Of a stretch of 24,000 bases of DNA, positions 18,579 to 20,505 are shown one piece after another. The DNA comes from Candidatus Hadarchaeota archaeon (GTDB taxonomy: Archaea; Hadarchaeota; Hadarchaeia; Hadarchaeales; Hadarchaeaceae), in assembly GCA_040755315.1 (NCBI GenBank), contig JBFMBF010000015.1:6819-30818 (forward strand). The letters run 5' to 3'. Position 1 is the first letter of the stretch. Each line of letters begins with the position of its first letter. Under the pieces are notes generated by a model, which saw only the letters and a program-made list of their open reading frames with translations, was not told the origin of the DNA and ran no database searches. The position numbers and the translations under genes were made by a program.

Positions 18579-18890
18579 CTAATGGCGCCTTCTGTGCTGG
18601 TTGAGGAACCCCATCCGGAAGCCCCACTCCGGGTAAATCTTGGCCACTCCTAGAGTAATTCCCCAAGCACCAAAAATTCCTAGGGTTATAGTTGCCCCGA
18701 GCAGCAAATCCATCGGCACGTTCCCGCTGATTAGGAAGAGCTCCCCATTCCAGAGGTGGTCGACCACGCCAAAAATCGCTCCACCGTAGAGTAAAAGGTT
18801 CAACCACCAGCCAGCGGGGCCCCCTCGCCTAGACCTCCAGGCCACCGTTGAAATCAGGGCTGTAGTAAGAGGTATTGCATAGCAAACCAT
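18579..18890 (-). CDS. Small integral membrane protein (103 aa, about 3 TM), function unknown
   Basis: Strong SD GAGGTGA lies 5 nt before the ATG. Three hydrophobic segments, a GVVDHLWNGE motif in TM2, and a basic HRRRH C-terminus. Its stop is 1 nt from the convergent hypE stop. Confidence 0.6.
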   Translation of the reverse strand: MVCYAIPLTTALISTVAWRSRRGGPAGWWLNLLLYGGAIFGVVDHLWNGELFLISGNVPMDLLLGATITLGIFGAWGITLGVAKIYPEWGFRMGFLNQHRRRH

Positions 18891-18908
18891 TTTTTCACCT
18901 CGTTGTAC

Positions 18909-18936
18909 GTAATACTTTTCAGTATAAAAGTATTAC
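18909..18936. promoter_or_regulatory. Perfect 28-bp dyad GTAATACTTTT-CAGTAT-AAAAGTATTAC overlapping a TATA-like box; candidate NikR operator
   Basis: 11-bp perfect inverted arms (18909-18919 / 18926-18936). It lies 19 nt upstream of the start of the membrane-protein gene. The centre reads TTTTATAC on the minus strand. Confidence 0.45.
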
Positions 18937-18961
18937 CTGCGCGCCGGCTTTGTGTAAAAAT

Positions 18962-18982
18962 CCGCCGGTCATAGACCGGCGG
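18962..18982 (-). other. Hairpin downstream of tnpA (candidate IS right-end structure or terminator)
   Basis: Perfect 9-bp stem CCGCCGGTC / GACCGGCGG with a 3-nt loop. On the tnpA sense strand it is followed by ATTTTTAC. Confidence 0.5.
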
Positions 18983-19002
18983 CATTCGACGGTCTTTACG
19001 CT

Positions 19003-19486
19003 TTAGGCGAAATCGGCCAGCGTCACCTGCTTCGCGTCCGACTTTCTTTTCGGTTTTCCCTGATTTCTCACGTACTCGTCGATTTCCTCCGACGTCCTGT
19101 CTCCCATGCTATCAAAGTAGTACGCCGGACTCCAGAGCCCGCTGCCCCAGAAGTACTTGCTCTTGAAGTACGGGAACTCGCGCAGCAGCGCGTGGCCGGA
19201 GTTCCCCTTCAGGGCCTTTGCCATGCTCGCCGGGGAGTGGTTCGGCCCGGAGTCGACCGTGAGGTGTACGTGGTCGCGGTCGAACCCGATTTCGCGGATT
19301 TCCATGCCGTACCTCTGCGCGGTCTCGTGCAGAATCTCACCACACCGGCCCTTCACTCGCTCGTCGTCGAAGACCGGATGGCAGTACTTGGTCTTGGCAG
19401 TACTTGGTCCTGAAGCACACGTGCATCACGTTCTTACCGACGCTCGAGCTGTAGTGCTTTATAGAGCTCCCGCTAATCTGATCCAT
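19003..19486 (-). pseudogene. tnpA: IS200-family Y1 transposase TnpA, frameshifted by a 16-nt tandem duplication
   Basis: SD GGAGGT precedes the ATG at 19486. The N-terminal piece MDQISGSSIKHYSSSVGKNVMHVCFRTKYC then shifts frame. The C-terminal piece (tracked ORF 19003-19356) carries the HUH motif DHVHLTV and the catalytic Tyr in IDEYVRNQG. Deleting one 16-nt copy joins them as ...HVCFRTKYCHPVFDDERVKGRCGEIL... Confidence 0.85.
19379..19410. repeat. 16-nt tandem duplication inside tnpA
   Basis: TGGCAGTACTTGGTC occurs at 19379-19393 and again at 19395-19409 (period 16, one junction mismatch). The two tnpA halves are offset by 130 nt, and 130-16=114 is divisible by 3. Confidence 0.9.
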
Positions 19487-19497
19487 AGGAATACCTC

Positions 19498-19550
19498 CTG
19501 GTGGCGCCCCTAGTCCTGCCCTCTAGATCAAAGGGCGCGGGCGCCACCAG
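19498..19550 (-). other. Large hairpin upstream of tnpA (candidate IS left-end structure abutting the tnpA SD)
   Basis: Perfect 12-bp stem CTGGTGGCGCCC / GGGCGCCACCAG with a 29-nt loop. The tnpA SD (19494-19498) directly abuts the stem. Confidence 0.5.
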
Positions 19551-19645
19551 ACAAACTAACCGAGAAGTTGATTAGCACTTTTCGAAAGCCCCGCGTGCCC
19601 GTAAAAGGCTTTTGAACAGCGCCCCCAAGATAACTCCGGTGCACA

Positions 19646-20050
19646 GTGACGCAAAAACTCGCGCGCGTAAGCTTGACGCTTCCAACGGAGCTGTTGACTG
19701 AGCTCGACGGCGCCATTCAGTCCCAGCGTTACGCAAGCCGCTCTGAGGCCATCAGGGACTCCATCCAAGATTTCTTGGCCGACTACCGGTGGCGGAAAGG
19801 GCTTGCAGGCAAGCTTCTCGGGGCCATCCTGGTGCTCTACGACCACGAAGTCAGGGGGCTGGGTGACAAGCTGATAGACATCCAGCACGCAAGCGCCGAC
19901 GTTATAAAATCTGTGCAACACCTTCACGTTGACGAAAAAAACTGCCTGGAAGTTTTGATTTGCGAGGGTCGGGCGAAAAAAGTACGTGAACTTGTTGAGC
20001 GGATGAGTACACTTCGAGGCGTGAAACAGGCAAAATTGGTGGTTGTCTAG
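19646..20050 (+). CDS. nikR: Nickel-responsive regulator NikR
   Basis: N-terminal ribbon-helix-helix RVSLTLPTELLTELDGAIQSQRYASRSEAIRDSI. C-terminal Ni-binding domain with the YDHE, HLHVD and CLEVL blocks. GTG start. Confidence 0.9.
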   Translation: MTQKLARVSLTLPTELLTELDGAIQSQRYASRSEAIRDSIQDFLADYRWRKGLAGKLLGAILVLYDHEVRGLGDKLIDIQHASADVIKSVQHLHVDEKNCLEVLICEGRAKKVRELVERMSTLRGVKQAKLVVV

Positions 20051-20087
20051 GCCGCAACCGCGAATGAAATCCCTGCAAAAACTATGT

Positions 20088-20477
20088 TTATTTTACCCGC
20101 TCCATCTTCCTTCTTCCGAGCGCCTGGATGTATTCCACCTCAGACCCCTCGTGCACTTCGCCGCGAAGGTTTATCGGAATGGGCAGCTCAAATGTCTCGT
20201 AGGTCAGAGTGTCCATGAGCTGGGCGTTGCTCTCGACAACGGCGAGAACCTGCGCGGCCCCCCTCTCGATGATGGGGACCTCGATTGTTGCGCTCGTCGG
20301 TCTCACGATGGTTCTTTTCTGAGAGTCGAAAAGCCCGACGGCATCGACCTTGGCTTTCGCGTGCCCGTGCTTCCCCGGGGCTGAAGTCGTGAAGCCAACT
20401 ATCCGGCATGGCTCCTCGTCAACAATTATAAACCTGCCCTCCTTGAGCTTGCCGACCTCGGTCACCTCTCTCGCCAT
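20088..20477 (-). CDS. eif5a: Translation initiation factor 5A (aIF5A)
   Basis: Hypusine-loop motif TSAPGKHGHAKAKV, followed by an OB-fold C-terminal half. I prefer the ATG at 20477 (MAREVTEVGKLK, preceded by GGTGA) over the tracked 20489. Confidence 0.95.
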   Translation of the reverse strand: MAREVTEVGKLKEGRFIIVDEEPCRIVGFTTSAPGKHGHAKAKVDAVGLFDSQKRTIVRPTSATIEVPIIERGAAQVLAVVESNAQLMDTLTYETFELPIPINLRGEVHEGSEVEYIQALGRRKMERVK

Positions 20478-20505
20478 CTTTTCACCCATCCCAGTTTTCA
20501 GCGGT

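Follow-up and report, generated by a model that had tools for sequence, protein, structure and literature searches.

The nikR locus and its 28-bp dyad

The window, which is the whole stretch of 24,000 nucleotides analysed here, belongs to a hadarchaeal genome (G000) of 1.21 Mb in 50 contigs that is 86.6% complete. Two genes of the window are oriented away from each other, nikR on the plus strand and a gene for a 103-residue membrane protein on the minus strand. Further out, the membrane-protein gene has hypD and hypE as neighbours, and nikR has the genes for aIF5A and NAD kinase. The space between the two divergent genes holds a 28-bp dyad and an IS200/IS605-type element (Table 1).

Table 1. 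Features around the dyad, in window coordinates
Feature	Position	Strand	Remarks
Three-helix membrane protein gene, 103 aa, proposed regulated target	18579–18890	-	N-terminal M-V-C-Y; invariant D44-H45
Shine-Dalgarno GAGGTG	18896–18901	-	5 nt 5' of ATG; read from sequence
Candidate NikR operator, 28-bp dyad with 11-bp perfect arms	18909–18936		Same position kept in relatives
Promoter-distal half-site GTAATAC	18909–18915		On the gene strand, the downstream half, between putative TATA box and expected transcription start
TATA-like element TTTTATAC within the candidate operator	18922–18929	-	Read from sequence
Half-site GTATTAC	18930–18936		On the gene strand GTAATAC, just 5' of putative TATA box, at the predicted BRE position
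IS200/IS605-type element, core	18953–19579	-	Homology with three other copies (76–78% identity) starts and stops here
tnpA (Y1 transposase), split in two frames	19003–19486	-	Pfam Y1_Tnp; ORFs 19003–19356 and 19337–19486
16-nt tandem duplication disrupting the tnpA frame	19379–19410		Missing from three other IS copies (G006, G057, G042)
nikR, 134 aa, intact	19646–20050	+	Pfam RHH_1 and NikR_C

The dyad has the sequence GTAATACTTTT-CAGTAT-AAAAGTATTAC, with 11 perfectly complementary base pairs per arm and a spacer of 6 nt, and both its arms and its TATA-like centre are exactly as the original prediction described them. It can also be read as GTAATAC-N14-GTATTAC, that is, as two 7-bp half-sites with 21 bp from centre to centre within a total of 28 bp (7-N14-7). 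In this form it occurs once in the window, compared with none in 100 dinucleotide-preserving shuffles, and the whole genome likewise contains a single occurrence. The dyad and the ATG of the membrane-protein gene are separated by 18 nt, and this stretch includes GAGGTG-AAAAA. The centre of the dyad reads TTTTATAC on the gene strand and is predicted to act as the TATA box of that gene.

The nikR product combines an N-terminal ribbon-helix-helix (RHH) domain with a C-terminal NikR_C domain, and scores 153 bits against the NCBIfam model of the nickel-responsive regulator (NF002169, cut-off 111). Its residues H81, H92, H94, and C100 align with the nickel site of Pyrococcus horikoshii NikR (2bj1), and thus form the His-His-His-Cys pattern of the high-affinity nickel site. 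By these features, the regulator encoded in the window looks functional.

Retention of the dyad at loci with and without the insertion element

The IS is missing from this locus in four relatives from other genera (G003, G004, G015, and G021), all of which carry the same 28-bp box before the membrane-protein gene. In such IS-free relatives, nikR and the membrane-protein gene are divergent neighbours 106–162 bp apart and the dyad is kept between them; the original prediction had estimated the distance at 130–150 bp and foreseen the divergent arrangement. The box has nikR as its divergent neighbour in G003, G004, G008, G015, G021, G044, G060, and further Hadarchaeota MAGs. The gene across the box from nikR is not always the same even within one genus (g7), being the membrane-protein gene in G015 and G021, and nikMNQ in G008 and G044.

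A second conserved element, which is GAAAGCTTGAAAAT-like, lies 35–40 nt 5' of the nikR start in relatives (L004, L005, L007, L008, and L014), only a few nucleotides from the box. G009 and G016, whose nikR has no box alongside, share it as well. This element is probably nikR's own promoter (BRE/TATA), and it would yield a nearly leaderless mRNA.

The IS copy of the window is the only one in its genome. Its true ends are uncertain, as the left end lies somewhere between 18937 and 18953, and the right end between 19579 and approximately 19630; on the right side, homology to the other copies ends at 19579 and weak similarity continues to approximately 19630. If the 16-nt duplication that splits tnpA is not an assembly error, this copy is apparently dead. 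The proximity of the IS, which starts within 0–16 nt of the dyad, raises the question of whether the dyad belongs to the element as one of its ends, as a guide structure, or as a target hairpin, all the more so as the IS200/IS605 family transposes through single-stranded hairpins. A structure of this kind should accompany other copies of the IS and be gone from empty sites. Neither is the case. The three related copies found in family genomes (G006, G057, and G042) share homology with the window copy from approximately 18953 onward, and their flanks are mutually unrelated and without the dyad, whereas the dyad is kept in IS-free relatives of several genera; furthermore, a second box occurs elsewhere in G000 in spite of the single IS copy. 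We therefore rejected the dyad as a part of the IS, and give this explanation practically no weight. The original prediction had named recurrence of the dyad beside other IS200 copies as a sign of an IS end, and no such recurrence was found.

Isolated matches of 24–38 nt to the IS-end hairpin CCGCCGGTC-ATA-GACCGGCGG are present at several places in G003 (L077, L079, and L081) and G006 (L080 and L082). These matches could represent solo ends of the IS or miniature elements derived from it.

A shared box upstream of five gene families

We scanned 46 genomes of the hadarchaeal family with the strict pattern GTAWTAY-N14-RTAWTAC, using the same pattern read backwards as control. The scan returned 26 sites compared with two for the control, a recurrence above chance, although the genomes are related MAGs and the site counts are hence not independent. 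All 26 strict sites, together with the variants found by relaxed matching, could be assigned to positions 3–36 nt 5' of start codons, and the downstream genes fall into five families. Three of these are small membrane proteins, namely the 103-residue protein family and two related families whose N-termini read M-A-C-F... and M-W-L..., respectively. The fourth is nikM-nikN-nikQ, the canonical target of NikR, with the box 15–17 nt upstream in seven out of seven operons of the family. The fifth is a HemN-like radical-SAM gene, which has the box 15–18 nt upstream in all ten close orthologues from seven genera; more distant homologues (about 36% identity) are without it. The original prediction of a NikR operator had suggested a genome-wide search for similar dyads near nickel-transport genes, and such sites do occur upstream of nikMNQ and beside nikR. 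Because the box is common to nikMNQ, the small membrane proteins, and the HemN-like radical-SAM gene, these genes appear to constitute a hadarchaeal NikR regulon.

The second box of G000 is located on contig 3 (45582–45609; L057:3583–3610), 15 nt 5' of the gene for a 422-residue HemN-like radical-SAM protein. The other weak dyad-like hits in this genome (in C1, C2, C47, and others) have two to three arm mismatches and GC-rich spacers; they were attributed to chance, and only C3:45582 was kept. The upstream neighbours of the second box comprise two ArsP_1-type permease genes with CPxC motifs, a DUF364 gene, a ZIP transporter gene, and a thioredoxin gene. DUF364 is a domain with a putative role in heavy-metal chelation.

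An alignment of 34 sites in the orientation of the gene gives the consensus GTAATAT-TTATATA-N-AAAA-GTA(T/A)TAC. Positions 1–9 and 18–28 of the matrix are nearly invariant. Specifically, positions 1–7 read GTAATA(T/C) and correspond to the half-site at 18930–18936, while positions 22–28 read GTA(T/A)TAC and correspond to the half-site at 18909–18915. The TATA-like element is always in the upstream half, and at the positions matching that of the window the family consensus is TTTATATA.

The window dyad is among the most symmetric of the sites compared, and its perfect 11-bp arms could be taken for a nucleic-acid hairpin, be it a terminator, an attenuator, or a cruciform, instead of a protein site; the second box of G000 might be read in the same manner, since it contains the stop codon of the upstream permease gene. 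Across the 34 sites, however, only 7–11 of 14 positions are complementary, and every site has A at position 4, yet the partner base at position 25 is T in 23 sites and A in the other 11. The variation between sites is thus not compensatory, which points to protein recognition of two half-sites and argues against selection for a hairpin. As the box also lies 5' of the expected transcription start and in divergent promoter regions, a hairpin function is extremely improbable.

We then considered whether the box is simply a strong core promoter, composed of BRE, TATA, and an initiator-proximal part, with incidental palindromy and no repressor. Its TATA-like middle and its fixed orientation and distance to the start codon would agree with that. 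Such an element should be general to promoters, while the box is found only once or twice per genome; its invariant outer arms, GTAATA and GTA(A/T)TAC, and the A4 tract 3' of TATA are common to unrelated gene families. A further argument comes from G002, a genome of the same genus as G000 whose syntenic region (L035 1081–1818, corresponding to window 18579–20489) contains the genes for NADK, aIF5A, the membrane protein, HypE, and HypD. In G002, aIF5A is directly followed by the membrane-protein gene, the alignment blocks being 16 nt apart compared with 1195 bp in the window, where the box, the IS, and nikR intervene. There is no box at this syntenic site of G002 and nikR was not detected in its genome, that is, the box is gone together with nikR. 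HypE and aIF5A of G002 are 93% and 98% identical to those of the window, respectively, and the membrane protein only 62%. A core promoter without any repressor is accordingly a very unlikely account of the box.

Likeness to published NikR boxes

The NikR boxes predicted in delta-proteobacteria are inverted repeats of 27–28 bp with the form GTGTTAC-[N13/14]-GTAACAC or, reversed, GTAACAC-[N13/14]-GTGTTAC (Rodionov et al., 2004; PMC545781). The hadarchaeal box shares with them the overall length, the 7-bp half-sites with a GT...AC frame, and the location at promoters of nikMNQO-type transporters and beside nikR. Compared with the reversed form, the window box has one mismatch per half-site, so that six of seven positions match GTAACAC/GTGTTAC. 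It differs in that the half-site GTA(A/T)TAC is almost self-palindromic, the spacer is AT-rich with a putative archaeal TATA element and no bacterial -10, and the host belongs to an uncultured archaeal phylum. The window dyad hence has the geometry, the half-site class, the promoter position, and the association with nikR that are typical of NikR boxes.

The original prediction had drawn on the Escherichia coli operator at PnikABCDE, GTATGA-N16-TCATAC (PMC7055735; complex structure 2HZV). The likeness holds for the total length of 28 bp and the outer GTA...TAC ends, whereas among published boxes the GTGTTAC-N13/14-GTAACAC class of PMC545781 comes closest. The E. coli operator deviates in its inner half-site (GTATGA versus GTAATAC), in its bacterial promoter, and in its target, which is the ABC importer nikABCDE and not a small membrane protein. 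In E. coli, a tetrameric RHH repressor sits on two half-sites two turns apart and represses in a nickel-dependent manner, and the same layout is proposed here.

Comparative-genomic NikR operators are an established type, which includes archaeal nikMNQO operons, for which NikR sites were predicted by Rodionov et al. (2006), as cited in PMC10617489 (also PMC545781). Our analysis shares with that study, as far as it is cited there, the comparative-genomic inference and the nikMNQO target, which has the box in seven relatives here. The targets that PMC10617489 cites from it include neither the small (D/E)H membrane proteins nor the HemN-like radical-SAM protein. Our literature search found neither an experimentally verified archaeal NikR operator nor a paper linking NikR to Hadesarchaea.

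Bacterial homologues of the membrane-protein gene provide an independent line of evidence. At 14 bacterial loci, the homologue is part of an operon with the order nikR, outer-membrane barrel (Phenol_MetA_deg), membrane-protein gene. Upstream of all 14 operons there is a -35 element, TTGACA, together with a 27-bp box, GTG(Y)TAC-N13-GTAA(Y)AC, which overlaps the -10 element and has the published NikR-box form. The right arm of five of these boxes is GTAATAC, the half-site sequence of the window.

These comparisons also bear on the possibility that the box serves another transcription factor, for instance of the DtxR, ArsR, or TrmB type, whose targets overlap with nickel genes. In G052 and G053, the radical-SAM gene does have a DtxR-type regulator gene downstream, approximately 1.4 kb from the site. 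Moreover, the box is present in G017 (91% complete), in which nikR was not detected, and it stays with the target genes even where nikR is elsewhere in the genome; in G009 and G016, conversely, nikR is found without an adjoining box. No other regulator is repeatedly adjacent to the box, though, in contrast to nikR, its divergent neighbour in at least 14 loci. In its length of 27–28 bp, its two-turn spacing, and its GTnnnAC half-sites, the box agrees with published NikR boxes, and the bacterial homologues have a canonical NikR box before nikR itself. We hence regard a different regulator as improbable, yet as the most serious of the rival explanations.

Proposed control by NikR

Taken with its position and conservation, the dyad is very probably an operator at which nickel-loaded NikR binds across BRE and TATA and represses the membrane-protein gene. 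The two RHH dimers of the NikR tetramer would contact the two GTA(A/T)TAC half-sites. With centres 21 bp, or two helical turns, apart, both half-sites lie on one face of the helix, which suits two such dimers. The box is predicted to span the BRE position and the TATA-like element and to end at about the expected transcription start; assuming a start approximately 25 nt 3' of the TATA centre, the leaders of the target genes would be roughly 8–29 nt long. Because the box covers the putative BRE and TATA almost to the expected start, Ni-NikR bound there would block TBP and TFB. In this scheme, NikR loaded with nickel excludes the two factors and represses when nickel is sufficient, whereas NikR would leave the DNA and the membrane-protein gene would be expressed when nickel is scarce. 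Repression of this kind is what one would expect for uptake genes, and the same logic should apply to nikMNQ.

In the window genome, the box and nikR appear to have been separated by the insertion of an IS200-type element that is now decayed. As this element is on the nikR side and starts 0–16 nt past the box, it leaves both the operator and the core promoter of the membrane-protein gene intact. NikR acts in trans, so that control of the membrane-protein gene should persist despite the IS. The displacement of nikR by about 650 bp means that its autoregulation through the box, if it ever existed, has probably been lost. The locus thereby gives two natural variants for the coupling of regulator and operator, one in which an IS separates nikR from the box, and one, the sister genome, without both.

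The operator represents an expected type of switch, and its value is that of a marker for genes without family assignment. It places in the nickel regulon an unannotated, widely distributed superfamily of small membrane proteins and a HemN-like radical-SAM gene, and these members, along with the two locus variants, are the less ordinary part of the system.

The small membrane protein

An AlphaFold2 model of the 103-residue protein, based on 23 sequences, has three helices with a mean pLDDT of 85. A fold search of the PDB with this model gave no match (best E = 5.6), and neither Pfam nor NCBIfam has a family for the protein or for the two related small families. Among the residues that never vary in the 103-residue family are D44-H45, located in helix 2, and D61, and the protein nearly always begins with M-(V)-C-Y. 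An (E/D)H pair occupies the equivalent position in the two related families.

The original prediction had seen a faint resemblance to HupE/UreJ, a family with the signature HPxxGxDH. Membership in this permease family (PF04955) was rejected, given that there is no Pfam or NCBIfam match, that three helices are modelled compared with about six, and that only the DH pair is shared; the DH motif itself, on the other hand, has turned out to be the invariant core of the family. An assignment to the NikM/CbiM S-components (PF01891/CbiM, MHIPDG) was likewise rejected, as no family match was found and the N-terminus is M-V-C-Y; the 103-residue family is clearly different from the true NikM genes that relatives possess. 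With HupE/UreJ and with the NiCoT proteins HoxN and NixA, the family has in common the invariant acidic-His pair in a transmembrane helix and the gene linkage to nikR and hyp. It differs from both by the missing family match, by its size of about 100 residues with three helices compared with six to eight, and by the N-terminal M-x-C-[YF].

Nickel is essential for the hydrogenases and CO dehydrogenase of these subsurface archaea, and archaeal nickel uptake is little understood (PMC10617489). We searched G000 for NikM/CbiM, NiCoT, and HupE/UreJ and found none of them in this 86.6% complete genome, in which hyp genes are present; importers of the NikABCDE type were outside the search, and the completeness of the genome means that the three families are to be read as not found rather than absent. 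With hyp genes present and the three searched transporter families not detected, the membrane protein is a concrete candidate for the role of the missing importer. Involvement in nickel uptake is the most economical interpretation, one that we favour by a slight degree over its negation. In the hadarchaeal family, nikM occurs in seven genomes and the membrane-protein gene in 27, and only G060, which has 4% contamination, has both; this near-exclusive distribution is suggestive only, since the genomes are related.

The family extends far beyond Hadarchaeota, reaching Omnitrophota, Planctomycetia, Spirochaetota, Caldatribacterium, Micrarchaeota, Thermoplasmata, and others. Among the loci of the membrane-protein gene across phyla, 27 of 80 have nikR within 2.5 kb. 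The gene stands at the end of a hycI-hypAFCDE operon on one Omnitrophota chromosome, and follows znuA-like ABC genes and nikR on one metagenomic contig. A wider reading is that the three-helix (D/E)H proteins of about 100 residues, those of the 103-residue family and of the two related families alike, are an unrecognised minimal nickel permease that replaces NikMNQO in most Hadarchaeota and is paired with a dedicated outer-membrane barrel in diderm bacteria; separately, the HemN-like radical-SAM protein in the NikR regulon might hint at undescribed nickel-linked tetrapyrrole or cofactor chemistry. We put these two ideas forward tentatively, and on balance doubt them somewhat more than we believe them.

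In Omnitrophota, Planctomycetia, and Spirochaetota (L102, L107, L111, L116, and others, at approximately 1550–2480), the barrel that precedes the membrane-protein gene in the same NikR-box operon is a secreted Phenol_MetA_deg/DUF5777 protein of 250–310 residues. The barrel and the membrane protein look like a two-membrane route of nickel uptake. A Fur-family gene with an N-terminal extension is often next at these bacterial loci. In several Hadarchaeota, a gene for an 83–88-residue protein resembling the beta-barrel of EF-Tu domain 2 lies beside the membrane-protein gene or nikM (L064 2382–2633, L068 2329–2595, L006, L010, and L063).
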